Origin: a virus
Strand: one strand, 5' to 3'
DNA length: 51,627 bases
IMG/VR virus record: IMGVR_UViG_3300031994_000147
Positions 1,267 to 51,627 of the stretch are shown piece by piece. Every line of letters begins with the position of its first letter. Within the stretch, counting starts at the first letter, position 1. Under the pieces are notes generated by a model. The model saw only the letters and a program-made list of their open reading frames with translations. It did no database searches and was not told the origin of the DNA. The position numbers were made by a program, and so were the translations under genes.

Positions 1267-1488
1267 TCATTTCTTAGAGATCAGCTCCTGAGCCGCGCAC
1301 AGCGCAAGGTACGACACCGCATAAGGGCGTGAACGTTCGAGCACATCATCTTCGTACATGTGGCTGAACACTGCTTCAATTGTGGCGAGTGCTTCTGCTA
1401 TCAGATCTCCATCATTCAGCCCTTCAATATCTCTAGCATAGTACTCTGAGAGCTGCTGTCTGAATTTTTCTCTATCGGTAATTTGCAT
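1267..1488 (-). CDS. Hypothetical acidic protein, 73 aa (start trimmed to MQITDRE)
   Basis: On the minus strand GAGGGGG-TATATT-ATG gives a good RBS for the ATG at 1488. The ORF-track start at 1509 has no RBS. Confidence 0.6.
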   Translation of the reverse strand: MQITDREKFRQQLSEYYARDIEGLNDGDLIAEALATIEAVFSHMYEDDVLERSRPYAVSYLALCAAQELISKK

Positions 1489-1539: not shown

Positions 1540-1789
1540 GGGGTAACAAAGAGCGGTAACATTCTGCCGAAACCCCTATTTTCTGTTACCCCTGTTTATT
1601 TTCTTGTTACCCCTAATGTTACCTTAAATGTTACCCCTGAAATGCCCTATTTTACTATGTTTCATATATAAAGGTAACAAAGTAACATAAAAATAGGTAA
1701 TAGACTAGAAATAGCATATTAAGGGCACATATACGCCATACACGCCATATCTGCGCCCGTATACGCGCGCGAGCGCGAATGTTGTTACC
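1540..1789. repeat. Iteron-rich dispersed repeat, copy A (partner 25658..25910)
   Basis: GGTAAC at 1542 and 1555. GTTACC at 1585, 1606, 1618 and 1630. AT-rich core TATATATAAA. GGTAAC at 1673. TAYACGC-like motifs at 1729-1770. Terminal GTTGTTACC at 1781-1789. Collinear with copy B. Confidence 0.9.
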
Positions 1790-2005
1790 TCACTCTTTCG
1801 GCTCTGGTTCGTAGGACAGTATATCCCCGGGCTGACACTCGAGCAGTTCACACAGGGTAGCTATACCGTCAGCACCGAGCATCTTTCCCTCTTTCAGCTT
1901 CTGGATAGAGCTGTGCGAAATGATCTTCTCGACATTGAGACGGTATGTGGAGTAACCCTTTTCTTTCAGGGCTGCTAATACATTGATCTTGTACTGTAAC
2001 GACAT
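1790..2005 (-). CDS. Small XRE/Cro-C1-type helix-turn-helix regulator, 71 aa
   Basis: The pattern KINVLAALKEKGYSTYRL...SIQKLKEGK...IATLCELLECQPGDIL matches the ~70-aa HTH family ending ...L.C...DI. Divergent from the 2181+ operon. Confidence 0.75.
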   Translation of the reverse strand: MSLQYKINVLAALKEKGYSTYRLNVEKIISHSSIQKLKEGKMLGADGIATLCELLECQPGDILSYEPEPKE

Positions 2006-5078: not shown

Positions 5079-6143
5079 TTAAACCTCGTAAACTTCCTGG
5101 TTTTCATCGTCTGTGTCCAGTTTCGTGTCCAGTATCTCCGAGAACTTTGCAGACATGGTCTGCGATATCTCTTTCTTCTTGGCATCGTACAGATGCTGAT
5201 AGACGTTCTTTATCATGTTTGGTGAGCTCTGCCCCAGACGTTCCATAGCGTACTTATCTGGCACGCCCTGAGCTAGCATGAGTGATGCATTACCGTGTCT
5301 CTGACCGTGCATCGTGAAGTGCGGCAGGCCGTTCAGCTCACAGAGCTGTTGGAATCTCTTCAACACCGAGTTCGGTGTCATGGTGCTTATGTACTCAGAC
5401 TTCCGCTCAGCTCTGTCAAGCCTTGCCTTTAGCACCGCATCGACTTCAAGCAGTCTTGTACTTGCCTTAGACTTGGTCGTGTCCTTCTCCACGAGCTTGT
5501 TATCCTTGTTCGGGACTTTTGCTGCATGGATGTACAGGAACTGTCCGTCATAGTCGGACCATTTGAGCGCCGCTATCTCCGATTGTCTGAGACCCAGAGT
5601 GACCGCGATCGTGACCGGGAGCTCAACGTTAGTCCCCTCAACGATGGTCAGTATCTTGGCTATCTCTTTTTCGGTCGGTATGTTCGGCTCGTACTTCTGC
5701 TTCTCAGGGAGCTTGATAGCTCGCAGATCTAAGTCAATTCTGTTCTGCCTGAGGGTAGCTGTAACAAGCCCGAACTGGTTACGTATGCCCTTTGGCTTGT
5801 ACCTCGCTGCATTATCACTTACCCACTTCTGCAAGTCTTTCTCGGTGATATCTTTCAGCTGCATCTTCCCGAAGTCACCCAGAGCGTTCCGGTAGATTAT
5901 CATGTACCCTCTGACTGTTGAGGGGCTTAGCACATTTTCCTTCGATTCGATATATTCTTTCACGGCTTCACTGAGCGTTAGTGCTCTCGGTGAGGTCTTT
6001 ATTTTTCGCTTAGTTTCCCATTCGGCAGCAAGCAGCTTTACTTCTGCTTTGGTCGGAGCAGTGAAGCTCTTCCGGGTGTTGGTGTGTCTGTCGTATACTC
6101 TGATACGGTAATTCCCGCTCGGCAGTTTCTCGATCTTAGCCAT
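5079..6143 (-). CDS. int: Tyrosine recombinase / phage integrase, 354 aa
   Basis: N-terminal arm-binding type MAKIEKLPSGNYRIRVYD. The C-terminus has RQSE, HGQRHG...L and the NVYQHLY catalytic Tyr context. Confidence 0.92.
   Translation of the reverse strand: MAKIEKLPSGNYRIRVYDRHTNTRKSFTAPTKAEVKLLAAEWETKRKIKTSPRALTLSEAVKEYIESKENVLSPSTVRGYMIIYRNALGDFGKMQLKDITEKDLQKWVSDNAARYKPKGIRNQFGLVTATLRQNRIDLDLRAIKLPEKQKYEPNIPTEKEIAKILTIVEGTNVELPVTIAVTLGLRQSEIAALKWSDYDGQFLYIHAAKVPNKDNKLVEKDTTKSKASTRLLEVDAVLKARLDRAERKSEYISTMTPNSVLKRFQQLCELNGLPHFTMHGQRHGNASLMLAQGVPDKYAMERLGQSSPNMIKNVYQHLYDAKKKEISQTMSAKFSEILDTKLDTDDENQEVYEV
5114..5135 (+). repeat. Two further TGTCCAGT repeats inside the 3' end of int (candidate P' arm sites)
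   Basis: TGTCCAGTTT at 5114-5123 and TGTCCAGTAT at 5126-5135. They encode the LDTKLDT tail of Int. Confidence 0.5.
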
Positions 6144-6820: not shown

Positions 6821-7516
6821 CTATAAAGCTTTTATGACTTGTTGAACAAGTCCAACTATCTTGACATTGGCGAGCTCCGCGCCTTGAAGTATTCTCGGTG
6901 GGTACTCAGGATTGAATGAAGTGAGCTCTAACCGCTCTCCGTCAAAGTTCACTCGCTTGACAACGGCATCGTCACCGATCATCACAACAGCTATCCTGCC
7001 ATTGTCAACACATTCCTGCCGTCGGACAACTATTCTGTCACCGTCCTCTATCTTCGGGTACATGGATTGTCCGCGGACTGTGATGCAGATCGTGTCCTCT
7101 ACATCGAAGTCATTCTCAATATACAGCGGAATGTATTCCACTATATCACTGCTTGCGTAAGCTCCGAAGCCTGCTGCAACACTGTTGAAAACAGGTATCA
7201 TGTGAATTTTCTCCTGCGGGAGAACAGCAGCAACGTTAGAGCTGACTTTCGTTTCCGGTAGATTATCAGGAGCTCCGTGGTACTCACCTACATCATCTGA
7301 CTTCAAGGCTAACCACTCAGGGCTGACGTTAAGCTGCTGTGCCATAGCTTCAAGTATAGGTAGCTTGATCTTAGCGACTTTCCCTGCTTCATATCTCTGG
7401 ATAGTAGACTTGTTGAAGCCTAAAGGACTGCCCAGTGCTTCTTGTGTCATGCCGAGTTCTTCACGGCGCTTCTTTATTCTTTTGCCTATTTCAACGTTCT
7501 TTTCCACTAGGTTCAC
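6821..7516 (-). CDS. cI: CI-like repressor: XRE HTH plus LexA/S24 autopeptidase domain (probable true start GTG at 7507)
   Basis: HTH is GMTQEALGSPLGFNKSTIQRYEAG. S24 motifs are GQSMYP (Ser) and VVKRV (Lys). The GGGGG RBS lies 8 nt before the GTG at 7507. Confidence 0.9.
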   Translation of the reverse strand: MNLVEKNVEIGKRIKKRREELGMTQEALGSPLGFNKSTIQRYEAGKVAKIKLPILEAMAQQLNVSPEWLALKSDDVGEYHGAPDNLPETKVSSNVAAVLPQEKIHMIPVFNSVAAGFGAYASSDIVEYIPLYIENDFDVEDTICITVRGQSMYPKIEDGDRIVVRRQECVDNGRIAVVMIGDDAVVKRVNFDGERLELTSFNPEYPPRILQGAELANVKIVGLVQQVIKAL

Positions 7517-7549
7517 CCCCTTTCATTATAAGCATTATAACACAAAAAA

Positions 7550-7658
7550 TTGCAAAACGCAATATCTTTTTTGAAAAAATAAAAAAAAGTTGCAAAATGC
7601 TATTGACAAATCGAAAAATGTGTGGTATATTAGAAGCATAGAAAGTTGCAAAACGCAA
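7550..7658. promoter_or_regulatory. CI/Cro genetic switch: three TTGC-N5-GCAA operators and divergent promoters
   Basis: Operators TTGCAAAACGCAA (7550-7562), TTGCAAAATGCTA (7590-7602) and TTGCAAAACGCAA (7646-7658). Rightward TTGACA (7603-7608)-17-TATATT (7626-7631) with upstream TG. Leftward TTGCGT-17-TATAAT overlaps the 7550 operator. Confidence 0.8.
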
Positions 7659-8759: not shown

Positions 8760-9416
8760 ATGACCAATGAACAGAAAAACCAAGTTGCAGCTATGAATGC
8801 AGCAGGCATGAGTATAGATGAAATACTCATTGACACAGGACTTGACAGGCAGACAGTTACAGACTTCGTAGCTGAGAGAAATGCCTTGAAAGCTAAGAAG
8901 CGGGGCAGAGGTTACGCACCTTCGGCACAGACAAAGCAGGCTATGGTTGAATGGTACCAGAGCGGACACAGCATATGTGCTACTGCTAAGAAGTTCGGCG
9001 TTGACCCTAAGACAGTTAAGGGCGCGATAAGTGCAATAACAGGTGTTGATGTTACCACCAAGAGAACTGCTAAGGAAACCACAAAGGAAACCACTAAGGA
9101 AACCGTAAAGCCCGCTAAGAAGCCTACTAAAGAAAAAGAGCCCGCCACAGCTGCAACTGCGACAGAGCCCGAGAACAAGAATAACACTGTGCAGAACAAC
9201 TCTGCACCTATAAAGAATAACACATTTTCAGAGAAATGTCAAGCCCTTAAAGGCGTAGAAGTGATAGGACTTCTGCAGAGCATGATACTTGCGATAGAAG
9301 AGAACTTCGGCAGCTGTGCCGAGATCAAGTCTCTCAGGGCTGACAGTAACGATGCCGCTATAACATTCGAGTACGGCGGCACAGACTACTCCGTATCATT
9401 CGGAGCTATGTTCTAA
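8760..9416 (+). CDS. Putative DNA-binding protein with two HTH-like segments and a KETT repeat linker, 218 aa
   Basis: The segments MSIDEILIDTGLDRQTVTDFV and SICATAKKFGVDPKTVKGAI resemble resolvase/transposase-type HTHs. A 12-bp repeat AAGGAAACCACn occurs 3 times. Confidence 0.55.
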   Translation: MTNEQKNQVAAMNAAGMSIDEILIDTGLDRQTVTDFVAERNALKAKKRGRGYAPSAQTKQAMVEWYQSGHSICATAKKFGVDPKTVKGAISAITGVDVTTKRTAKETTKETTKETVKPAKKPTKEKEPATAATATEPENKNNTVQNNSAPIKNNTFSEKCQALKGVEVIGLLQSMILAIEENFGSCAEIKSLRADSNDAAITFEYGGTDYSVSFGAMF

Positions 9417-17053: not shown

Positions 17054-17069
17054 TAATAAACAAAAATAA

Positions 17070-17124
17070 TACCGATATTTCGGTAATAATGTCAATTGAT
17101 TATTACCGAAATATCGGATATAAT
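17070..17124 (+). promoter_or_regulatory. Second copy of the promoter/double-operator cassette: TTGATT(17096-17101)-17 bp-TATAAT(17119-17124)
   Basis: Palindromes TACCGATATTTCGGTA (17070-17085) and TACCGAAATATCGGAT (17104-17119). Collinear with 2077-2131. Confidence 0.7.
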
Positions 17125-17149
17125 ATACTTGTGCTTCGGAGGTGAAAGC

Positions 17150-21233: not shown

Positions 21234-21417
21234 ACGGTATATCGAGGGGCGTAATGCCTACGATCTGATGATAACAATGAGAGAACAGGGTATTGATGTA
21301 TGCCCGATAAAGCTTGTAGGTGCTGAAATGCCTAAGTGCATACCGACAGAAGATTACACGACAGACTGCAAGACCTGCATACAGCGGTTTTTGAACGAAG
21401 AATGTACAGAGAGGTGA
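21220..21417 (+). CDS. Hypothetical Cys-containing protein, 65 aa
   Basis: In-operon ORF with a purine-rich RBS. Confidence 0.5.
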   Translation: MRNRERYIEGRNAYDLMITMREQGIDVCPIKLVGAEMPKCIPTEDYTTDCKTCIQRFLNEECTER

Positions 21418-21424
21418 TAAAATA

Positions 21425-22138
21425 TTGGCGCTCCCAAAACTCGACTTAACCGGGCGTGAATTCGGAGACCTGACAGTGTTACGCAAGGATACACCATACA
21501 GGACACCCGGTGGAACACCTTACGCAAGGTGGGTGTGCCGATGCAAATGTGGCAAGGTCAAAAGCATTCGGGCTACGCACCTCGTGAATGGTAGAACAAA
21601 ATCATGTGGATGTATGCGAAATGTGTACCTGTCTAAGCTGATAGGGAAAACAAACAGATTCGAGGTTTTAGGCGAGTGCACGAGGGTGTTCACGTCTAAC
21701 TCCGAAAGCTTTATCATTGACACCCGAGATATTGATGCAATCAAAGACCTGTATTGGAGTATTGATAGCACAGGCTACGTGGTCAATGTGAAAACTGGAA
21801 AACGGCTACACGCTTTTCTCATGAACTGCCCGCAGGGGCTGTGCGTAGACCACATATCCGGTGACAAGAAAGATAACAGAAGATGCAACCTCAGAATCTG
21901 TACATATCAGCAGAATAGCTGTAACAGGCACAAATCGCCGCGCAACAAAACTGGTGTGTTAGGAGTATACAAGAACGCAAGGGGTAAATACGTCGCCCAG
22001 ATAAGAGCTAACGGTTTCAGACATCATCTAGGCACATTTGCAACTCTCGAAGAAGCGACAAGTGTGAGACACAAAGCTGAGCAGATGTATTTCGGCGAGT
22101 TTGCGGGTCAGTTATTAAACCAGGAGGAGAAACGATGA
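21425..22138 (+). CDS. HNH homing endonuclease with AP2 DNA-binding domain and N-terminal CxC...CGC zinc module (TTG start)
   Basis: HNH_3-like VDHISGDKKDNRRCNLRICTYQQN. AP2-like TGVLGVYKNARGKYVAQIRANGFRHHLGTFATLEEA. The N-terminal DLTGREFGDLTV...WVCRCKCG...SCGC is paralogous to 15163..15660. Confidence 0.8.
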   Translation: MALPKLDLTGREFGDLTVLRKDTPYRTPGGTPYARWVCRCKCGKVKSIRATHLVNGRTKSCGCMRNVYLSKLIGKTNRFEVLGECTRVFTSNSESFIIDTRDIDAIKDLYWSIDSTGYVVNVKTGKRLHAFLMNCPQGLCVDHISGDKKDNRRCNLRICTYQQNSCNRHKSPRNKTGVLGVYKNARGKYVAQIRANGFRHHLGTFATLEEATSVRHKAEQMYFGEFAGQLLNQEEKR

Positions 22139-23096: not shown

Positions 23097-25610
23097 ATGC
23101 CGGATAGGCAGATAGTTATATCGGTAGGTAACAGCCGTAACAGTAAGATGTGGCGGCAGGAGAATACAACAGTCTCAGCATTGTATGCAAGGCTCACACA
23201 GCCAATTGTAGGCACGGAGACCCATGCAGAGTACATGAGTATGCCCAAGACACAGCAGGACGATCTAAAGGACATAGGCGGCTTTGTAGGCGGCACTCTG
23301 AATGGCACACGCCGTAAGGCGGCTAACGTGCTCGGCAGAGATATCATAACACTTGACTTCGATAATATCCCCGGGTGGGGTACAGACATGATAGCAGCTA
23401 AGACCGATGCTCTGAACTGCAGTTACTGCATTTACAGCACACGTAAGCACACAGCAGCTAAGCCCCGCTTGCGCGTTATCCTTCCGCTTGACAGAACTGT
23501 ATCACCCGATGAATACGAGCCTATTGCAAGGCGTATAGCGCAGCAGATAGGCATTGAGTGCGCTGATAAGACCACATTCGATGTATCACGCCTTATGTAC
23601 TGGCCGTCAAAGTGCTCTGACACAGAGTACTATTACAAGACCAAAGATGCACCCTTTATCTCAGCTGACATGGTGCTCGGTACATATGCAGACTGGCACA
23701 ACGTCAGCTCATGGCCGCAGGCGCCCGGAGCTGTATCGCACAAGGCTCTTGCAGTCAAGCAGGGAGACCCGCTCGAAAAGACAGGTACCGTTGGAGCGTT
23801 CTGCCGTACATACACCATTGAGCAGGCTATGGCTGCTTTTCTCCCGGGCATATATGAGCCTGTTGATAATATGCCTGACAGGTTCACCTATCTGGGCGGC
23901 TCGACCACAGGCGGCGCGATAGTCTATGACGGTAAGTTCCTTTTCTCGCATCATGCGACAGACCCATGCTCGGAGAAGCTTGTCAACGCATTTGATATGG
24001 TACGTCTGCATAAGTTCGGAGATCTGGACGAGGACAAGAGCCCCGATACACCAATTACTAAGATGCCCTCGTTCAACAAGATGTGCGAGTTCGCAGAGCA
24101 GGACAAAGGCTGCAGGGCTACACTCAACAGGGAGAGACAGCAGGCGGCGGCTCTGGACTTCAACGGTCTGAGCACAGCAAGCGCGGCGGCAAGTGTGACA
24201 GCACCTGCACCGACAGCAGGCATGGCAGCTCCTGCGATAACACCCGCTGCAGCACAGCAGATAACTCCTACCGATGACGATCTGACCGCTGACTGGCGTG
24301 ATGAGCTTGAGTACAAGGTCAACAGTGATATTCTGAAAAACACTATCAACAATTATCTGATAGTTCTGAACAATGACCCTCTGATAAAAGATAAGTTCGC
24401 ATACAATGCTTTCGCAGAACGTAAAGAGATCTTCGGAGCCCTGCCGTGGGACAGCAGCACAGGACGGAGAATGTGGACTGATGCAGACACCAACGGTTTG
24501 TACTGGTTTATGGAAGCACGATACAATCAGGCAGGGCGCGGCAATATAGATAGTGCGCTCAGCTTGTACATGGCACAGCACAGCTTCAACGAAGTGCAGG
24601 ACTTCTTGAACGGTCTGCAGTGGGACGGTGTGAAGAGGTTAGACACTCTTTTCATTGACTACCTCGGAGCTGAGGACACAGAGTACACCAGGGCAGTTAC
24701 ACGCAAGATGTTCGTAGCGGGTGTTGCACGTGCTATGACCCCCGGAGTGAAGTTTGATAATATGCTTATCCTCGTAGGCTCACAGGGCTTAGGTAAGTCA
24801 ACGCTCTTGCGCCGTATGGCTCGCGGGTGGTTCAATGACAGTATATGTTCGTTTGAGGGCAAGGATGCAGCTGAACTGCTTCAAGGTGTATGGCTTGTAG
24901 AGATATCGGAGCTCGGAGCTTTCAGGAAGTCGGAGAGCTCACGTATCAAGCAGTTCCTTTCCCTTAACTCTGATATCTTCCGTGCGGCGTATGCTCGTAA
25001 TGCAGAAGAACGTCAGCGTAAATGTGTGTTCTTCGGTTCAACTAATGATGACGAGTTTTTGAGAGACCCCACAGGCGAGCGCAGGTTCTGGCCTGTTGAC
25101 TGCTGCAGGGAGCGCAAGAAGTTAAGTCCTTTCACAGACCTCAACGACCATATCATATCACAGGTGTGGGCAGAAGCTCGTGCGTACTGGATAACCGGCG
25201 AGCCCCTGTTTCTTAGTGAAGATCTGGAACAGATGGCTAAGGCTAAGCAGATGGAGCACAAGGAAGAATCTGTTAAGATAGGTCTGATAAGAGAGTTCAT
25301 AAGCAAACGTGTTCCTGAGGACTGGAACAGGTATACCATAGATCAGCGCCGTATGTGGTGGGGCTCGCATGGTACGTCCGCACAGGACGGTGACGGAGAT
25401 ACCGAGCTCGTTGAACGTGACAGGATATCAGCTGCGGAGATCTGGGTGGAGTGCTTCAACGCCGACTTAGCTCACATGGGTAAAGCGGAAGCGCGAGAGA
25501 TCAATGAAGCATTCAGAACTATTGACGGTTGGAGCAACACGACCGAATCAAAGAAGTGCGGTCCGTATGGTCAGCAGCGTTGTCATATGAAGATGTGTTC
25601 TGCACAGTGA
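23097..25610 (+). CDS. Primase-helicase: AEP-type primase-polymerase N-domain fused to a VirE/D5-like SF3 P-loop helicase
   Basis: DIITLDFDN (DxD), STRKHT..., DVSRLMYWP. Walker A is GSQGLGKST and Walker B is VWLVEISEL. 837 aa. Confidence 0.85.
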   Translation: MPDRQIVISVGNSRNSKMWRQENTTVSALYARLTQPIVGTETHAEYMSMPKTQQDDLKDIGGFVGGTLNGTRRKAANVLGRDIITLDFDNIPGWGTDMIAAKTDALNCSYCIYSTRKHTAAKPRLRVILPLDRTVSPDEYEPIARRIAQQIGIECADKTTFDVSRLMYWPSKCSDTEYYYKTKDAPFISADMVLGTYADWHNVSSWPQAPGAVSHKALAVKQGDPLEKTGTVGAFCRTYTIEQAMAAFLPGIYEPVDNMPDRFTYLGGSTTGGAIVYDGKFLFSHHATDPCSEKLVNAFDMVRLHKFGDLDEDKSPDTPITKMPSFNKMCEFAEQDKGCRATLNRERQQAAALDFNGLSTASAAASVTAPAPTAGMAAPAITPAAAQQITPTDDDLTADWRDELEYKVNSDILKNTINNYLIVLNNDPLIKDKFAYNAFAERKEIFGALPWDSSTGRRMWTDADTNGLYWFMEARYNQAGRGNIDSALSLYMAQHSFNEVQDFLNGLQWDGVKRLDTLFIDYLGAEDTEYTRAVTRKMFVAGVARAMTPGVKFDNMLILVGSQGLGKSTLLRRMARGWFNDSICSFEGKDAAELLQGVWLVEISELGAFRKSESSRIKQFLSLNSDIFRAAYARNAEERQRKCVFFGSTNDDEFLRDPTGERRFWPVDCCRERKKLSPFTDLNDHIISQVWAEARAYWITGEPLFLSEDLEQMAKAKQMEHKEESVKIGLIREFISKRVPEDWNRYTIDQRRMWWGSHGTSAQDGDGDTELVERDRISAAEIWVECFNADLAHMGKAEAREINEAFRTIDGWSNTTESKKCGPYGQQRCHMKMCSAQ

Positions 25611-25657
25611 CACCCCATGTCTGAGCGCCAGCTTAGTTGATGCAGTGATGCAGAATA

Positions 25658-25910
25658 GGGGTAACATTATCGGTAACATTCTGCTGTTACCCCCCTATTT
25701 TCTGTTACCCCACGAAAAATAAATGTTACCCCTAATGTTACCTTTTTTGTTACCCCTGAAATGCCCTATTTTACTATGTTTTATATATAAAGGTAACAAA
25801 GAAACATTAAAATACCTAATAGACTAGAAAGTATATATGTATGGGCGCGTATACGTCATAAACGCATATATTTGCGGGTATATACGCGTACACGCGCGAA
25901 TGTTGTTACC
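25658..25910. repeat. Iteron-rich dispersed repeat, copy B (partner 1540..1789)
   Basis: GGTAAC at 25660 and 25672. GTTACC at 25686, 25705, 25725, 25737 and 25749. The same AT-rich core. GGTAAC at 25792. TAYACGC-like motifs at 25850-25898. Terminal GTTGTTACC at 25902-25910. Confidence 0.9.
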
Positions 25911-25944
25911 CCTGATTTGAGAGAGGATATTGGAGGTTGAATTG

Positions 25945-26244
25945 ATGAACGTGATCGAATCAGAAATCGAGAACAAGATGCGGCAGAAGCTGAAAAAGCA
26001 TGGAGCGATCTTCTTCAAGTTCGTGAGCCCTTCCATGAGCGGGGTGCCTGACCGCATTGTGATAATGCCCAATGGCAGAGTGATCTTTGTTGAGTTGAAA
26101 CGAGACGGCGGTATCATATCGGAACGACAGAAGTTTATCCACAAGATGCTTCGCATGAACAATGCTGAGGTGCGAGTGGTCATTGGCATGGAGCAGGCTA
26201 TGAGATTCGTGAGGGAGGTGTGCGAGGACTGTGAGTGCAGCTAA
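25945..26244 (+). CDS. VRR-NUC domain nuclease (start trimmed to MNVIESE)
   Basis: GVPDRIVIMPNGRVIFVELKRDGG is the PD...ExK core. RBS GGAGG 9 nt upstream of the ATG at 25945. Confidence 0.8.
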   Translation: MNVIESEIENKMRQKLKKHGAIFFKFVSPSMSGVPDRIVIMPNGRVIFVELKRDGGIISERQKFIHKMLRMNNAEVRVVIGMEQAMRFVREVCEDCECS

Positions 26245-27616
26245 GCATTTTATTCCGCATAACTATCAGGCGTACTGTCGTGATCGGATAATCGATACAC
26301 CGAACATCGGACTGTTTCTCGAAATGGGTCTTGGCAAGACTGCTATAACACTCGATGCAGTGAAGCGGTTGAAGTATCATTACCTGCAAATTGTCAAGAC
26401 TTTAATCATAGCACCGAAGAAAGTAGCTGAATCCACATGGCACACAGAAGGAGCACAGTGGTTAGAGTTTTCTGAACTTCGCTTTTCCTTCGTCATGGGC
26501 ACTCAGGCTGAGCGCATAGCTGCACTCAATACTCCCGCGGACATCTACCTGATAAACCGCGAGAACACACAATGGCTTGTTGAGTATTATAAACACAAGT
26601 GGCCGTTTGACATGGTGGTTCTTGACGAATCGTCAAGCTTCAAGAATCATCAGGCTAAGCGGTTCAAAGCATTGAAGCTAGTCCGCAGCCGTATCAATCG
26701 CATGGTGCTCCTGACCGGTACGCCCTCACCGAAGTCCCTCATGGACTTATGGGCTCAGGTGTACTTACTGGACGGAGGGCAAAGGCTCGGCAGAACGATA
26801 ACCGCTTACCGTGATGCATACTTCGTACCCGACAAGCGGAACGGTCAGATAATTTACAGCTACGCTCTGAGGGATGGCGCAGACAAAGAGATCTACAAGC
26901 GGATATCTGATATCTGCATATCCATGAGGTCAGCCGATTATCTATCCTTGCCCGAGCTGATGTACAACGACATACCTGTCATGCTTGACAAGCCTGCTGC
27001 AGCAGCATACAAGAAGCTAGAGCATGATATGCTCATCGAGGTTGACGAAAGCACGATCACGGCGGGTACTGCTGCGGTGCTGACCAACAAGCTCCTGCAG
27101 CTGTGCAACGGTGCAGTGTATGACGAGGACGGCAAGGTGATAGAGCTGCAGTCCTGCAAGCTTGATGCACTCCTGGAGACCGTTGAGCAGCTCGGAGACG
27201 AACACGCGATTATCTGCTATAACTTCAAGCACGACAAGGACAGGCTCATGCAGGCGCTCTCGAAAACAGGTAAGCGCGTAGCTGTGTACGAGGGAGAACA
27301 GCAGAAGCAGGACTGGAACGATGGCAAGATTGACCTCATGCTTGTACAGCCTGCATCATGTGGCTACGGTCTGAACCTGCAGCGCGGAGGACATCACATC
27401 ATCTGGTTCGGTCTGACATGGAGCTTGGAGCTGTATCAGCAGACGAACAAGAGACTGCACAGGCAGGGGCAGACACACCCGGTTATCGTGCATCACCTGA
27501 TCGTCAAGGGCGGAGCTGACGAGGATGTTATAACAGCTCTTCACGCGAAAGACTTAACGCAGGAAGGACTTCTCAACGCCCTGAGGGTACGTCTGAGGGC
27601 TGCAAAGCAGGGATAA
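26231..27616 (+). CDS. SNF2/DEAD-like superfamily 2 helicase (GTG start)
   Basis: Motif I is LEMGLGKT, motif II VVLDESSSFKN, motif III LLTGTP and motif VI QQTNKRLHRQGQ. Confidence 0.9.
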   Translation: MSAAKHFIPHNYQAYCRDRIIDTPNIGLFLEMGLGKTAITLDAVKRLKYHYLQIVKTLIIAPKKVAESTWHTEGAQWLEFSELRFSFVMGTQAERIAALNTPADIYLINRENTQWLVEYYKHKWPFDMVVLDESSSFKNHQAKRFKALKLVRSRINRMVLLTGTPSPKSLMDLWAQVYLLDGGQRLGRTITAYRDAYFVPDKRNGQIIYSYALRDGADKEIYKRISDICISMRSADYLSLPELMYNDIPVMLDKPAAAAYKKLEHDMLIEVDESTITAGTAAVLTNKLLQLCNGAVYDEDGKVIELQSCKLDALLETVEQLGDEHAIICYNFKHDKDRLMQALSKTGKRVAVYEGEQQKQDWNDGKIDLMLVQPASCGYGLNLQRGGHHIIWFGLTWSLELYQQTNKRLHRQGQTHPVIVHHLIVKGGADEDVITALHAKDLTQEGLLNALRVRLRAAKQG

Positions 27617-27628
27617 TTAATACAAAAC

Positions 27629-27685
27629 ACACAACATCTTGTGGTTATTTTTGGCTATTTTGTCTTTAACCACAAGATGTTGTGT
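27629..27685. repeat. Perfect 18-bp inverted repeat with 21-nt spacer (operator and/or terminator hairpin)
   Basis: ACACAACATCTTGTGGTT (27629-27646) and AACCACAAGATGTTGTGT (27668-27685). A third, 15/18-matching copy AACCACAACATCTGGTGT lies at 27700-27717. Confidence 0.85.
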
Positions 27686-27693
27686 ATTACCCC

Positions 27694-28019: not shown

Positions 28020-28394
28020 ATGGAAAACAGAAAGCTGATACGCATTCAGACAGAAAACAACCTCAACGAGGTCTACGCAGTAGACGAGCCCGGTGCGGGT
28101 AATGCAAGTCATGAGTACTTGGTGTTACTGCCTACGGACGAACCCGATGTAGCAATACCTGTTGAGATAGCTTTCCAGAATGGACCGAGGAAAGACCCCA
28201 ACAGCATTTCGGGTGTACTGGACACTGATCTGTTGGAGATCGTCCGCGACAGGCTCAAAGGTTTCCAGAGCGGCGAGTTCGCCTGCCGTGAAAATGCTTG
28301 TGCTCTTACCCACATCGAAGAAGCGCTCATGTGGATGAACAAGCGCGTAACTGACAGAGCACAGCGCGGGGTGCTCGGTACCAACAACAAGTGA
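28020..28394 (+). CDS. Conserved phage protein of unknown function, first late gene, 124 aa
   Basis: RBS ACGGAGGG. The FQNGP...GVLDTDLLEIVRDRLKGFQSGEFACRENACALTHIEEALMWMNKRVTDRAQRGVLGT pattern recurs next to terminase genes in many phages. Confidence 0.7.
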   Translation: MENRKLIRIQTENNLNEVYAVDEPGAGNASHEYLVLLPTDEPDVAIPVEIAFQNGPRKDPNSISGVLDTDLLEIVRDRLKGFQSGEFACRENACALTHIEEALMWMNKRVTDRAQRGVLGTNNK

Positions 28395-32954: not shown

Positions 32955-33028
32955 GGACTGATAGCTCAATTGGTTAGAGCACTGACCTTATAAGTCAGAG
33001 GTTAGAGGTTCGATTCCTCTTCGGTCTA
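32955..33028 (+). tRNA. tRNA-Ile with anticodon UAU (reads AUA)
   Basis: Hand-folded cloverleaf: acceptor GGACTGA/TCGGTCT (two G-U pairs), U8, D arm GCTC-AATTGGTTA-GAGC, anticodon arm CTGAC-CTTATAA-GTCAG, variable loop AGGTT, T arm AGAGG-TTCGATT-CCTCT, discriminator A. CCA is not encoded. Confidence 0.8.
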
Positions 33029-37990: not shown

Positions 37991-38030
37991 CAGTAACCAA
38001 TAGTAACCAATAGTAACCAATAGTAACTAA
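37991..38030. repeat. Tandem 10-bp repeat (C/T)AGTAACCAA x3 plus a degenerate fourth unit TAGTAACTAA
   Basis: CAGTAACCAA TAGTAACCAA TAGTAACCAA TAGTAACTAA, in the intergenic region. Confidence 0.9.
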
Positions 38031-38061
38031 TAATTGATAATTATGACGGAGGCTAGTTATT

Positions 38062-43368: not shown

Positions 43369-43791
43369 ATGAGCAACTTTAGGGGCTATCTGGTAAAAGC
43401 CTACAACGGAACTATCCTCGATCAGTACTTAGCTGCAGAGGGATTTAAATGCACCCCTGACCAAAGGCAGGATAAGGATTCGTACCGAGACGGTTACGGC
43501 ATACTTCACAGAAATGTTCTGCCGGGGGTGACTTCAACACTTGAATTAACGACACTTGACGGCTTGAACGTTGACCAGGTAGCGGCATTCAAAGAAGCTA
43601 TCGAGAGCGGCATCATCAACAGTATGGAGCGTAAACTCACGCTCACATACTGGAATGATGAACGAATGGCCTACTGCACAGATACGTTCTATATGCCCGA
43701 TATGACGTTCACATACAGCCGTATACAGGATAACACCCTGATATACAAATCAACGACATTCAAATTCATAGGGTACGGTGAGCAGCGATGA
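43369..43791 (+). CDS. Tail component (possible distal tail protein), 140 aa
   Basis: Position directly after the tape measure gene. RBS AGGAG before the ATG at 43369. Confidence 0.45.
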   Translation: MSNFRGYLVKAYNGTILDQYLAAEGFKCTPDQRQDKDSYRDGYGILHRNVLPGVTSTLELTTLDGLNVDQVAAFKEAIESGIINSMERKLTLTYWNDERMAYCTDTFYMPDMTFTYSRIQDNTLIYKSTTFKFIGYGEQR

Positions 43792-46700
43792 TAGACATTT
43801 CTAGCGAACAGCAGCAGATATTGCTAGCAAACGGTACCGTCAAGAATTGGCAGATAGTTGTATACAACTCTGACGATGAACCCGAGTTCACGATACCGAC
43901 AGAAAAGATGGTTGACAACAGTCTGACCATAAAGGAAAGTCTGTGCTCCGCTCAGAGCCTTGACATAGGTGCTTGTGAATCATCGGTGCTGACTGTGAAG
44001 CTTGCTAACCTCAACAGCTCAGAGCTGAAAGACAAGAAGCTTGTTGTCGTGCTCAACGCTTCACAGGGAAATGTGTCCGTTGAGCTCGACATGGGCACGT
44101 TCTATGTCGATGATGTACCACACGAGAACAACACATGGTTCTACACTCTGACAGCGTATGACAGCATGATTAAGTTCGATGTGAAGATCTTCGAGTGGTA
44201 CAACTCGCTCTCGTTCCCGATGACTTTACAGCAGTTCAGAATTGCACTGTGCGCTCATGTGGGCGTTGAGACAGCACCCGAACAGCGGTTACCGCTTGAT
44301 GATATGGTAATCACGAAGAGTGATGCTGTGGATATCAACCTCACAGGACGGCAGGCGTTAAGAGCTATCTGCGAGATAAACGGTGCATTCGGTCACATCA
44401 ACAGACAGGGTCAGCTTTCCTTCGTCAGACTGGGCACCGAATCAGTCATAACACTCTTCGAGGGTGGTGCAGACCACTACAAGGCGGGAGCCACGCACGA
44501 GAACTGGGAAGTTCCTGAGATAGAAGCGGCAATAGCTTATTCGCTCTCCAACGAACAGGGTATTGTCTATCCTGCACAGGGCGGCTTCAATGCCTACACG
44601 ATCAGTGATAACTTCCTCTGCTACGATCTCAACGATGCAGACCTCGCAAGAGTAGCACAGACGATATACGGAGCTTTCGAGGGTATCACCTACACCGGGC
44701 ACAACACACCGATAACAGGCAGACCGTGGTTAGAAGTCGGGGACATGATAACAATTGATTCTGACGGAGAGCAGATTGAGACGTACATCTTCGAGAGAAC
44801 GTTAGCAGGCTTCCAGAGCATGACTGACAAGCTCTCCGCAAAGGCTACGGACAGCAGGGACGAGGATAGAAGCAGTACACATCAGCAGATCGAGAGATTA
44901 AAGCGTGATGCAAACCAGATAAAGACCTCGTACCTGAGGGCTGATGTAGCGGAGATAACCTACGCTACTATCGAGAACCTTGAAGCTACAAATGCTGTCA
45001 TAGGACACCTTGAAGCAGTAGACGTTGAGATAACCGGAACGCTGACAGCTGCACAAGCGGATATCCGACAGCTGAGGGCTGACAAGGCAGATGTTACCGA
45101 CCTCACGGCAGTGACAGCACGTGTACAGTACCTCGAGGGTGACGTGGCATCATTCCACAGCTTGTATGCTTCGGATATCACGGCAGTAAATGCCAATATC
45201 ACTAATCTGCAAGCTGCAACAGCGAATATCAGTACACTGGTAGCGCAGAAAGCTAATATAACTGACCTGCAGGCGGCTACCGCAAGGATAGGCTCCGTTG
45301 AAGCGAACGTAGCGGATATCGATACTCTGATGTTCGGCTCTGCGACAGGCACGAGCATACAGACATCTTTTGCAAATGCTGTGATAGCACAGCTCGGTAA
45401 TGCTCAGATACAGAGTGCTATGATAGACAGTGTATCTGCAAGCAAGATCAGCGCGGGTAACATCTTCACCAATGCAGTCCGTATCTACGGTGACAACTCT
45501 CACAAGCTGTCTATCGTGGATAACACGATAAGCATATCGGACGGTACTAACGTCAGGGTGCAGATCGGTGAAGATGCAGAGGAAGATTACAACATATACA
45601 TCTGGGACGATGAAGGAAACCTCATGTTTGATGCGCTCGGTCTTACGGCTGACGGCATCACGAGAAAAGTCATCAGAAATGATGTTGTAATGGACAACGC
45701 CAACATATCAGCTTACAAGCTTGACATAGATTCACTTTTCAACGCGATAAACGAGGACGGCTCGAACACCCTGAGCGGCGCGAAAGTCAAACTCGATACC
45801 GAAAACCAAACCCTTGACGTAGCGTTCACGAACCTGACTACACTTGTTACGACACAAGGCAGTACAATCAGCTCACAGGGTACGGCGATCTCGACCATAC
45901 AAGGTCAGATATCATCTAAGATATGGCAGCAGGATATCACTGCTGCATCTGATGCTCTGACACAGACCATGAACACCCAGTACTCCACGCTCACCCAGAA
46001 CATCAACTCGGTAAGCATAGCACTAGGCTCGGAGATATCGAGCATACAGCAGCAGATTGACGGTGCAACGAATACCTTCGTTGGTGATGAAGCTCCGACC
46101 TTGCAAAACTATCCTGCTGCGGACTGGGCGGCAAATGGTGAGCTGCAGAAGCACATCGGTAATATGTACTACGACAGCAACGGTTATTCATACCGCTTCA
46201 TGTCGCAGAACGTGTTCACAGCAGGCGGCGTAGTCCTCACGGACGGCGGTGATATGCTCAGTAACTTCTACTGGATGCTTATCCGAGACAGTGAGGTATC
46301 AAGGGCTCTACAAGATGCTGCAGCGGCTCTCGCAGGCGTTAACAGCATAGAGCACGCATTACTCACCAATTACAGCACAACAGCTCAGATGCACTCCTAT
46401 GTTGATGTGGCGATAGATTCTATCACACAGGAAGTCTCGGAGACATATGCAACTCATGCAGAAGTCACAGCTCAGGGTGCATCAACTTATGCAGATGCGG
46501 TAACCTATGCTGACGGTGTAGGAACTGCGGCGGCGGCAGATGCAACGAGCAAAGCCAATGCGGCAGAGACAGCGGCTAAGAACTACTACGATGTAAAGAT
46601 AGCTGATTACAGCACGACTACCGATGTACGGTCAATGATACAGCAGACCGCAAGCAGTATCACCCAGACCATAACCGACACCCGCACGGAGCTTATCTCC

Positions 46701-47150
46701 TACGCGGACGGAGTGAGGGACGATGCGGCGGCAGATGCTACACTCAAAGCAGGAGCGGCAGAAGCGGCGGCAATAGCGGCAGCGGCAACAGATGCAACGA
46801 GCAAAGCAGATGCGGCAGAAGCGGCGGCAGTAGCAACAGCGGCGGCAGATGCGGCAAGCAAAGCCAATGCAGCAGCGGCAGCGGCTAACAGCTACACTGA
46901 TAATCTGCTGACCTCATACAGCACGACAGCTCAGATGCAGAGTGCTATCGAGCAGACACAGGGCAGCATCTTACAGACCGTAAGCAGCACATATACCACT
47001 AAGGCAGAGTATGAAGCATTTGAGGTAGGTGCACGAAATCTCATACTGAACAGTATAGATCTGATAGGCACAACTCATTTCTTCTACAACAACGGCTTGA
47101 CAGACGGCTCATTTGCCCTCACAGATAACGGCAAATGGCTTGTTATATGA
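43788..47150 (+). CDS. Tail-associated / baseplate-fibre protein with long coiled-coil and Ala-rich repeats, 1120 aa
   Basis: Position. Repeated YSTT.(Q/D)(M/V).S...Q...SI.Q modules and four AAADA(T/A)SKA(N/D)AAE units. Confidence 0.65.
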   Translation: MIDISSEQQQILLANGTVKNWQIVVYNSDDEPEFTIPTEKMVDNSLTIKESLCSAQSLDIGACESSVLTVKLANLNSSELKDKKLVVVLNASQGNVSVELDMGTFYVDDVPHENNTWFYTLTAYDSMIKFDVKIFEWYNSLSFPMTLQQFRIALCAHVGVETAPEQRLPLDDMVITKSDAVDINLTGRQALRAICEINGAFGHINRQGQLSFVRLGTESVITLFEGGADHYKAGATHENWEVPEIEAAIAYSLSNEQGIVYPAQGGFNAYTISDNFLCYDLNDADLARVAQTIYGAFEGITYTGHNTPITGRPWLEVGDMITIDSDGEQIETYIFERTLAGFQSMTDKLSAKATDSRDEDRSSTHQQIERLKRDANQIKTSYLRADVAEITYATIENLEATNAVIGHLEAVDVEITGTLTAAQADIRQLRADKADVTDLTAVTARVQYLEGDVASFHSLYASDITAVNANITNLQAATANISTLVAQKANITDLQAATARIGSVEANVADIDTLMFGSATGTSIQTSFANAVIAQLGNAQIQSAMIDSVSASKISAGNIFTNAVRIYGDNSHKLSIVDNTISISDGTNVRVQIGEDAEEDYNIYIWDDEGNLMFDALGLTADGITRKVIRNDVVMDNANISAYKLDIDSLFNAINEDGSNTLSGAKVKLDTENQTLDVAFTNLTTLVTTQGSTISSQGTAISTIQGQISSKIWQQDITAASDALTQTMNTQYSTLTQNINSVSIALGSEISSIQQQIDGATNTFVGDEAPTLQNYPAADWAANGELQKHIGNMYYDSNGYSYRFMSQNVFTAGGVVLTDGGDMLSNFYWMLIRDSEVSRALQDAAAALAGVNSIEHALLTNYSTTAQMHSYVDVAIDSITQEVSETYATHAEVTAQGASTYADAVTYADGVGTAAAADATSKANAAETAAKNYYDVKIADYSTTTDVRSMIQQTASSITQTITDTRTELISYADGVRDDAAADATLKAGAAEAAAIAAAATDATSKADAAEAAAVATAAADAASKANAAAAAANSYTDNLLTSYSTTAQMQSAIEQTQGSILQTVSSTYTTKAEYEAFEVGARNLILNSIDLIGTTHFFYNNGLTDGSFALTDNGKWLVI

Positions 47151-51500: not shown

Positions 51501-51627
51501 GATAGATTATAGGAGGGGTAGCATGAATAAGAAGAAAATGAGCGAGTGGCTGTACAGAGCCCTCAGGACATTCGGACAGGCGGCAATCGGTTACATCGGT
51601 GCTAACATAGCACTGACAGATACATCA
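51501..51627. repeat. Second copy of the 127-bp terminal overlap (duplicate of the holin 5' end, not a separate gene)
   Basis: Identical to 1-127. Confidence 0.95.

Follow-up and report, generated by a model that had tools for sequence, protein, structure and literature searches.

A collinear repeat pair in a temperate phage of rumen Ruminococcus as putative paralogous replication origins of the staphylococcal pathogenicity island type

The repeat pair and its anatomy

The IMG/VR virus record IMGVR_UViG_3300031994_000147, a DNA of 51,627 nucleotides referred to here as the window, carries two plus-strand direct repeats rich in short iterated words (iterons), copy A at 1540-1789 and copy B at 25658-25910. 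Copy B fills the gap between the stop codon of a fused primase-helicase gene (23097-25610, plus strand) and the start of a VRR-NUC nuclease gene (25945-26244, plus strand; Pfam VRR_NUC). Copy A lies in an accessory region, in a 301-bp gap between two leftward genes, a 73-aa open reading frame (ORF73; 1267-1488, minus strand) and a gene for a 71-aa helix-turn-helix (HTH) protein of the Cro/C1 type (1790-2005, minus strand), beyond the lysis genes and at the prophage end distant from the integrase. A sequence-only reading of this DNA had placed and described the two repeats in this way and had proposed that they might be a pair of replication origins, a binding array for an unidentified phage protein or a recombination substrate. 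Comparison with related phages leads us to favour, by a modest measure, the reading that they are paralogous copies of one origin module of the Staphylococcus aureus pathogenicity island (SaPI) type, served by the same initiator, with copy A most likely as a second initiation site.

Global alignment bears out the collinearity of the two copies, with 206 matches in 254 columns (81.1%) and five gap columns, and the copies reach a local alignment score of 155, whereas none of 500 segments drawn at random from the genome exceeds 20. The central part was said to be nearly identical, and the repeat finder indeed returns a core of 107 nt with 93% identity (1605-1711 versus 25724-25830), together with a tail of 43 nt with 79% identity (1747-1789 versus 25868-25910). 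The window has 54 sites with the word GGTAAC or its inverted form GTTACC, where 15.3 ± 4.1 would be expected; the two copies account for 17 of the 54.

Site mapping agrees with the anatomy described earlier: two GGTAAC sites, four to five GTTACC sites, an AT-rich core, TAYACGC-like words and a closing iteron. The left iteron array of copy B (25660-25754) contains GGTAAC at 25660 and 25672 and GTTACC at 25686, 25704, 25725, 25737 and 25749, and that of copy A (1542-1635) contains GGTAAC at 1542 and 1555 and GTTACC at 1585, 1606, 1618 and 1630, the last three GTTACC sites being spaced 12 bp in both copies. The array is followed in each case by a conserved spacer, the AT-rich core, a pair of GGTAACAAAG(T/A)AAC words, four to five TAYACGC-like words and a closing GTTGTTACC. 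The core, a putative unwinding element, is TATTTTACTATGTTTTATATATAAA in copy B (25767-25791; -22.07 kcal/mol, 99.998th percentile genome-wide) and TATTTTACTATGTTTCATATATAAA in copy A (1648-1672; -23.24 kcal/mol, 99.986th percentile), each being the least stable 25-mer of its region and both belonging to the least stable DNA of the genome (above the 99.98th percentile). The right-hand iteron pair of copy B, GGTAACAAAGAAAC (25792-25805), faces the left array across the AT-rich core, and its counterpart in copy A is GGTAACAAAGTAAC (1673-1686). A second motif class completes each element, with TATACGT, TAAACGC, TATACGC and TACACGC and a closing GTTACC at 25905-25910 in copy B (25850-25910), and TATACGC at 1730, TACACGC at 1739, TATACGC at 1760 and a closing GTTACC at 1784-1789 in copy A (1730-1789). 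Counted as left, right and closing iterons, copy B thus has 7, 2 and 1, and copy A 6, 2 and 1.

Rfam returned no RNA family in copy A or copy B, and a hairpin-type single-strand initiation signal is unsupported because the GC-rich right-hand block folds no better than shuffled sequences (z -0.05 to -0.25). GC skew in the window tracks transcription and is featureless at both copies. A BLASTN search with copy A in 50,697 phage records gave no match, and a metagenome scan gave nothing beyond duplicates of IMG/VR contigs. A pattern scan based on iteron spacing returned mostly Val-Thr-Pro coding repeats, and the non-coding arrays it found in three loci (L004, L006 and L015; L numbers are our handles for loci) had no informative neighbours and were set aside.

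The presumed initiator and the element behind its gene

The product of 23097-25610 is a fused, VapE-like primase-helicase of 837 aa, a homologue of SaPI PriRep and the presumed initiator. It matches the VapE-like domain of Pfam (5e-79) and the DNA helicase/primase families of PHROG, and its residues 398-776 match PDB entry 7PDS, the SaPI5 protein PriRep5, by sequence (E 4.9e-83). When its AlphaFold2 model was compared with 7PDS by Foldseek, the whole target was aligned (E 2e-30). Family assignment thus places it among the self-loading helicase initiators of the VapE/SF3 type, here with a primase fused on. The C-terminal domain (aa 682-837; 25140-25610, plus strand) is modelled with a predicted local distance difference test score (pLDDT) of mostly 80-92, three 10-residue blocks scoring 51-67, and ends in a predicted winged helix, the presumed iteron reader, at aa 776-832 (25422-25592). 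In the AlphaFold2 model this fold comprises a strand (776-778), two helices (779-786 and 796-808) and a hairpin (812-820/826-832), these elements having a pLDDT of 80-88, and the last 60 residues of the protein score above 80, the last few residues excepted.

SaPI Reps are self-loading initiator-helicases whose C-terminal winged helix reads penta- or hexanucleotide iterons, and the SaPI origin, located immediately downstream of rep, is built of 6-12 iterons that flank an AT-rich centre, two or more to either side, the two sides being oppositely oriented (PMC9371898). Copy B begins 48 bp past the stop codon of the primase-helicase gene, and its counterparts likewise directly follow the gene in 87 relatives. 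Both copies of the window agree with this in iteron number and in the opposed iteron sets, of two or more, to either side of an AT-rich centre, and copy B is nearly invariant in about 20 independent assemblies. Judged from this sequence organisation, copy B is very probably a SaPI-type origin in its ancestral position and the presumed primary origin of the phage.

The 87 loci were collected around primase-helicase homologues of 47-99% identity, and all 87 have the same architecture immediately after the gene: a left array with direct iterons ahead of inverted ones, the AT-rich core, two tandem iterons, a spacer, motifs of the CGCCTAA or TATACGC type and a last iteron. Copy B-type elements lie behind the primase gene in every one of these loci, whatever flanks them upstream. 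The iteron words are lineage-specific and include GGTAAC, GGTTACA, TGTAACA, GGAACATT, GTGACAA, GTAAAC, GTAGAC, GGGACAA, GTCAAC and others, and the second motif class is present whatever the iteron type. Among isolated phages, Clostridium phage phiCT453A and Staphylococcus phage 3A share the layout. A protein search returned more than 7,800 primase-helicase homologues, the related isolated phages having Clostridium, Staphylococcus, Enterococcus, Listeria and other hosts, and a search with the C-terminal domain alone gave one match.

The iteron word changes jointly with the winged-helix C-terminal domain of the primase-helicase. Three loci (L017, L018 and L105) have GGTTAC at every iteron where the window has GGTAAC, and their primase is about 99-100% identical to that of the window up to about residue 700, save for a short variable linker, and 30-70% identical thereafter. 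As many as 46 of the 61 differences from the GGTTAC-type relative fall at aa 707-837, and helix 796-808 differs at 7 of its 13 positions. This concentration of differences, along with the structural model, points to a C-terminal winged helix carrying origin specificity. At the DNA level, the block diverging from L018 extends from about 25150 to 26250 and takes in the C-terminal domain, the origin and the VRR-NUC gene, identity returning to 97-100% after 26290; it bears the signature of a specificity module exchanged as a unit. The linker itself, at aa 377-390 (24225-24266), is a short, hypervariable, low-confidence segment at the junction of primase and helicase, which differs blockwise from L018 and holds 11 of the 15 differences located upstream of the C-terminal domain.

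Copy A, matched second copies and the rest of the genome

The conservation of copy A was assessed by comparing the window with four relatives over their full length. Identity to the window is 97-98% in copy A, 89-96% in its left-hand neighbours, the endolysin gene (232-1176) and ORF80, and about 80% in the spacer at 1177-1266; the HTH gene to the right of copy A, at 97-99%, is as conserved as copy A. In every relative compared, copy A is more conserved than the endolysin gene and ORF80, and it keeps its whole architecture, including the unwinding element, the second motif class and the other non-iteron blocks. The slot between ORF73 and the HTH gene holds an origin-like element in every relative, but this element behaves as an exchangeable cassette. 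L032, for example, has flanks with 83-96% identity around an element of another iteron type with only 30-65%.

In pairwise comparison, the elements cluster by iteron type rather than by position. One cluster unites copies A of the window and L027 with copies B of the window, L009 and L114, another unites copies A of L029 and L033 with copies B of L017, L018 and L105, and a third contains copy A of L032 and copy B of L019. Matched A/B pairs within one genome were found in three cases, the window, 3300037400_001110 (GGTTAC at both sites) and ERZ28612951 scaffold_829. These comparisons indicate that copy A is functional DNA, a paralogue coupled to copy B. Copy B of L009 contains an A-like patch of about 30 bp, with seven consecutive A-type informative sites in otherwise B-type sequence, and copy A of the window shares TGAAATGCCC with copy B, other A copies having CAAAACCCCC or a similar word at this point. 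Such patches mark short gene-conversion tracts between the copies, in both directions, and it is in this form only that the proposed recombination substrate is visible. The concern that one copy might be an assembly chimera is removed by the recurrence of both copies in many independent assemblies.

Second copies are also found in distant lineages. L024/L022, L137 and L160, whose primases are about 53% identical to that of the window and 61-67% identical among themselves, each have a second full-length, collinear direct copy that is 73-80% identical to their own primary origin and has their own iteron word. In these lineages it lies just downstream of the large terminase gene, between large terminase and portal and away from the lysis genes, at 7.5-8.3 kb from the primary origin, compared with 24 kb in the window. 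Matched pairs recur with at least five different iteron words, three of which these lineages contribute, and at unrelated positions. From these sequences we conclude that the second copy is accessory, patchy and moron-like, and that it is matched to the resident origin wherever it was found, with one exception, the Ruminococcus albus KH2T6 prophage considered below.

Judging from its sequence, the pair is carried by a complete temperate phage of the tailed type, with the rumen bacterium Ruminococcus albus as host, and not by a satellite island. The carrier is not a phage-inducible chromosomal island, the window having an integrase (5079-6143, minus strand), a CI-like repressor (6821-7516, minus strand), DNA polymerase, terminase, portal and tail genes and a lysin. 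It further encodes an exonuclease, an Enc34-type single-stranded DNA-binding protein and an SNF2 helicase; its DNA polymerase belongs to family A, and its terminase gene is that of the large terminase. The replication module consists of DNA polymerase A, PriRep, VRR-NUC and SNF2, and neither a DnaB-type helicase nor a loader turned up among the scanned genes, the scan being less than exhaustive. A search of genomes gave two loci only, which identified the host; the primase is 94% identical in the KH2T6 prophage and 98% identical in a contig of a rumen metagenome-assembled genome. Because bases 1-127 are 100% identical to 51501-51627, a 127-nt terminal direct repeat, the window represents either a 51,500-bp circle or a terminally redundant or circularly permuted assembly; on the circle, copies A and B are separated by arcs of 24,119 and 27,381 bp.

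Several other features of the window were recorded. Three 22-nt direct repeats (CACAAAAAATTGCAAAACGCAA-like) at 7541-7658, in the divergent region by the CI-like repressor gene, are probably operators of this repressor. An HNH endonuclease with an AP2-like domain (21425-22138) lies in a segment (about 21384-22118) without counterpart in L017, L019 and L023, which looks like a homing-endonuclease insertion into the replication module. The 124-aa product of 28020-28394, whose position is kept in relatives, has an Acb2/Tad1 hairpin domain (Pfam, 33.1 bits with a cut-off of 27) and may serve as a sponge for the cyclic-nucleotide signals of defence systems. A 22-nt inverted repeat, 95% complementary and with a 19-nt loop, directly follows the SNF2 helicase gene (27626-27688); a tRNA gene is located among the head genes (32955-33028; Rfam, 73.6 bits); the 10-mer AGTAACCAAT occurs four times in tandem between structural genes (37992-38031); and Ala-rich 57-nt coding repeats are found at 46530-46895, inside a gene for a 1120-aa protein (43788-47150).

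Possible roles of copy A and comparison with known origins

The mechanism that we favour can be outlined as follows. The primase-helicase would act as the initiator, its C-terminal winged helix reading the GGTAAC(A) iterons. On the two opposed iteron sets, initiator hexamers would form, melt the AT-rich core that separates these sets, load themselves and prime synthesis. Copy A would be an accessory duplicate, placed in the moron region that separates the lysis genes from the small HTH gene; the same protein would bind it, and its likeliest function would be that of a second initiation site, with selection and short gene-conversion tracts keeping it matched to copy B. We hold it probable that the same protein binds copy A, and put the chance that copy A fires as an origin a little below even. 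Of the earlier proposals, the pair of replication origins is sustained in so far as copy B has the features of an origin and copy A is its co-evolving paralogue, the firing of either being a matter of homology. In the proposed binding array, the reader would be the winged helix of the primase-helicase rather than the products of 8760-9416, 1267-1488 or 1790-2005, which had been suggested as candidates.

A number of observations weigh against this reading. Binding, melting and firing at either copy are inferred by homology with SaPI Reps, and the sequence fits a copy A that fires as an origin and one that only binds the initiator alike, GC skew being uninformative. Second copies are patchy: 83 of the 87 loci have none within 10 kb, the whole genomes of phiCT453A and phage 3A have none, and a pattern scan for the right-hand motifs returned no contig twice among the 80 listed of 94 matches. 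L157, whose terminase and primase are 92% and 81% identical to those of L160, has no second origin copy, its terminase-portal slot holding unrelated moron genes. Since second copies are patchy across relatives, copy A must be dispensable for this replicon type. The KH2T6 prophage (IMGVR_UViG_2651870358_000002, identical to NZ_FOAT01000012.1) pairs a GGTAAC copy A (L027, 7236-7549), 97.8% identical to that of the window, with a GGTTAC copy B (L018, 12473-12812) and a type-2 C-terminal domain, so that a matched copy A is not required for the persistence of the element. Look-ups with the VRR-NUC and SNF2 proteins of the window, which gave GGTAAC-type copy B only, revealed no further mismatched genome. 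Finally, in two assemblies from separate samples, L117 (12557-12859) and L118 (4970-5272), copy B is a hybrid that combines GGTAACAAA/TTTGTTACC iterons to the left of the AT core with GGTTACAAA/GGTTACAAAGTTACAAA iterons to its right, and the C-terminal domain has a helix like type 2 and a wing like that of the window; the central iteron base is therefore perhaps no strict determinant of specificity. The mismatches can be read in three ways: either the central iteron base is tolerated, or the right-hand pair is less important, or mismatched second copies are just carried along.

The sequence-only reading had also tied the repeat to the early promoter of the HTH gene through a 12-mer shared by both copies and found again at 2054, three exact copies of which were thought not to be expected by chance. 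The match at 2054 is in fact a 13-mer, GGTAACATTCTGC, present at 1555, 2054 and 25672. About 25% of composition-matched random genomes nevertheless contain at least one recurrence of an A/B-shared 12-mer, which places the match within chance. In addition, it does not follow the iteron type in relatives: copy B of most sister genomes has GGTAACATTCTC instead of the 12-mer, and L032 keeps the 13-mer and the HTH gene, yet its copy A iterons are GGTTAC. The 13-mer, and the fact that copy A adjoins the HTH gene, would speak for the repeats being operator arrays of the small HTH protein (1790-2005) or another phage regulator, tied to the early promoter. Such a role is most improbable, given the chance level of the 12-mer, the disagreement of L032 and the sister copies B, and the position of copy B-type elements behind the primase gene in 87 loci irrespective of the upstream flanking genes. 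The HTH promoter also has palindromes of its own, TACCGA-N-TCGGTA, which are duplicated at 17060-17125 and do not occur in copy A or B.

These palindromes belong to a promoter- or operator-like segment of 66 nt that is present twice in the window with 89% identity, at 2067-2132 in the divergent promoter of the small HTH gene and at 17060-17125 ahead of the operon leading to the primase gene. Each copy of the segment has two of the palindromes and a TATAAT box, and L019 carries it at the second of these positions. The arrangement suggests a single regulator for both promoters.

Among the roles that involve the initiator, copy A might bind it without firing and act as a programmed fork barrier, stalling forks from copy B and triggering the theta-to-sigma (concatemer) switch, as has been proposed for oriR of phage SPP1, in which gp38 binds both similarly organised origins and the collision of a fork with gp38 at oriR is the suggested trigger (PMC6316719, PMC3485210). 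Second copies occupy moron-type slots here too, between lysis genes and HTH gene in the window and between terminase and portal in L024, L137 and L160, the same slot being filled by unrelated morons in L157, and the replication module encodes a structure-specific nuclease (VRR-NUC), an SNF2 helicase and an exonuclease. A pure barrier would, however, have no need of the unwinding element and all the non-iteron blocks that copy A keeps, most relatives do without a second copy, the SPP1 initiator and helicase come from unrelated families, and the SPP1 model is itself still a proposal; we regard a barrier role as unlikely. A cis enhancer that activates copy B by looping, or a site of copy control through titration or handcuffing, is less probable still. 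The first would resemble crr of phage P4, with iterons at two distant sites beside a primase-helicase with a C-terminal DNA-binding domain, and iteron type does co-vary between both sites in the phages described here. Yet copy A is a full-length duplicate with an unwinding element and thus more than an iteron cluster, the distance of the second copy varies from 7.5-8.3 to 24 kb, most relatives have none, and a lytic burst has no obvious need of negative copy control. The fork barrier is thus the main rival; an enhancer, a handcuffing site, and a decoy or relic are less likely, since copy A still has its unwinding element and every non-iteron block.

There is, further, a slim chance that copy A has no role in the replication of its own genome, being either a relic kept by conversion or a prophage decoy against superinfecting relatives with the same iterons, akin to incompatibility or Per-like immunity. 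The KH2T6 prophage, in which the iterons of copy A are unlike those of its own origin, would fit, as would the accessory genes around copy A, at the integrase-distal end of the prophage, and the patchiness of second copies. Against a relic or decoy stands the conservation of copy A, above that of endolysin and ORF80 in every relative compared; drift and conversion alone poorly explain at least five matched iteron words at unrelated positions, and one chromosomal copy is a weak titrator. That the pair is an assembly artefact or a mobile insertion, for instance of the miniature inverted-repeat transposable element type suggested by the short inverted ends GGTAAC ... GTTACC, is refuted: the copies differ at 19% of positions and each occurs in many independent assemblies, target-site duplications are lacking, copy B keeps one position throughout the protein family, and the phage database has no match outside the primase-helicase family. 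A broader and more speculative reading, which we rate as doubtful, would make the origin of PriRep-type phages a portable cassette, repeatedly copied to moron slots and matched by conversion to the specificity of the resident initiator. The second copy would then be more than a spare origin and specialised in role, either as an initiator-bound fork trap timing the concatemer switch or, when mismatched as in KH2T6, as a prophage decoy against competitors of the other specificity.

The reading of A and B as paralogous origins would assign a concrete origin and initiator, by inference, to a very large phage family of Firmicutes in gut and rumen that has barely been studied experimentally; in the records of phiCT453A and phage 3A, the origin-bearing intergenic region carries no annotation. 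The pairing of iteron words with winged-helix variants constitutes a natural data set on how SaPI-type initiators read DNA, and the naturally mismatched KH2T6 prophage provides a built-in control. A recurrent, co-evolving second copy is also a tractable case of why a phage keeps two origins, a question that stands for SPP1 oriR as well.

In their organisation, the elements of the window resemble those of SaPI Rep/PriRep systems (7PDS; PMC9371898), which have a homologous primase-helicase with a C-terminal winged helix, an origin directly after the gene, hexamer iterons oppositely oriented around an AT-rich centre, and specificity residing in a swappable C-terminal domain and the origin. They differ in that the carrier is a complete 51.5-kb temperate phage of rumen Ruminococcus and no satellite island, in the additional conserved block of TAYACGC or CGCCTAA-type motifs, and in the presence of the origin twice per genome. 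This last property recalls SPP1, in which oriL, inside the initiator gene 38 (gp38), and oriR, on a late-region segment that bears morons, are built alike from repeats and an AT-rich unwinding element (PMC6316719, PMC3485210). As in SPP1, one locus accompanies the initiator gene, the other lies among morons at a distance from the replication genes, and one initiator would serve both. Unlike copy B, which follows its gene, oriL lies within gene 38; the gp38 initiator, gp39 loader and gp40 DnaB-type helicase are unrelated to PriRep, and the DNA elements have no homology.

Phage P4 offers a further parallel, its alpha protein combining primase, helicase and a C-terminal origin-binding domain in one polypeptide and the same iterons occurring at ori and at crr, an iteron cluster that is required in cis and is no full copy of ori. 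Copy A, in contrast, repeats the origin in full, with its unwinding element, and a single copy suffices for the replication of both near and remote relatives. Auxiliary iteron loci of plasmids, such as incA of P1, are extra initiator-binding repeats outside the origin that consist of iterons only and limit copy number by handcuffing or titration, whereas copy A has the unwinding element and every other block of the origin and is found in a lytic or temperate phage. The origin type is thus already known from SaPIs, and two origins per phage from SPP1, so that the window presents a variation and no new kind of system. What is new is the combination of a SaPI-type origin with a dual-origin arrangement, the breadth of the phage family using such an origin, and the sequence evidence that second copies arose repeatedly, in different slots, and evolved in concert with the primary origin and the C-terminal domain of the initiator.

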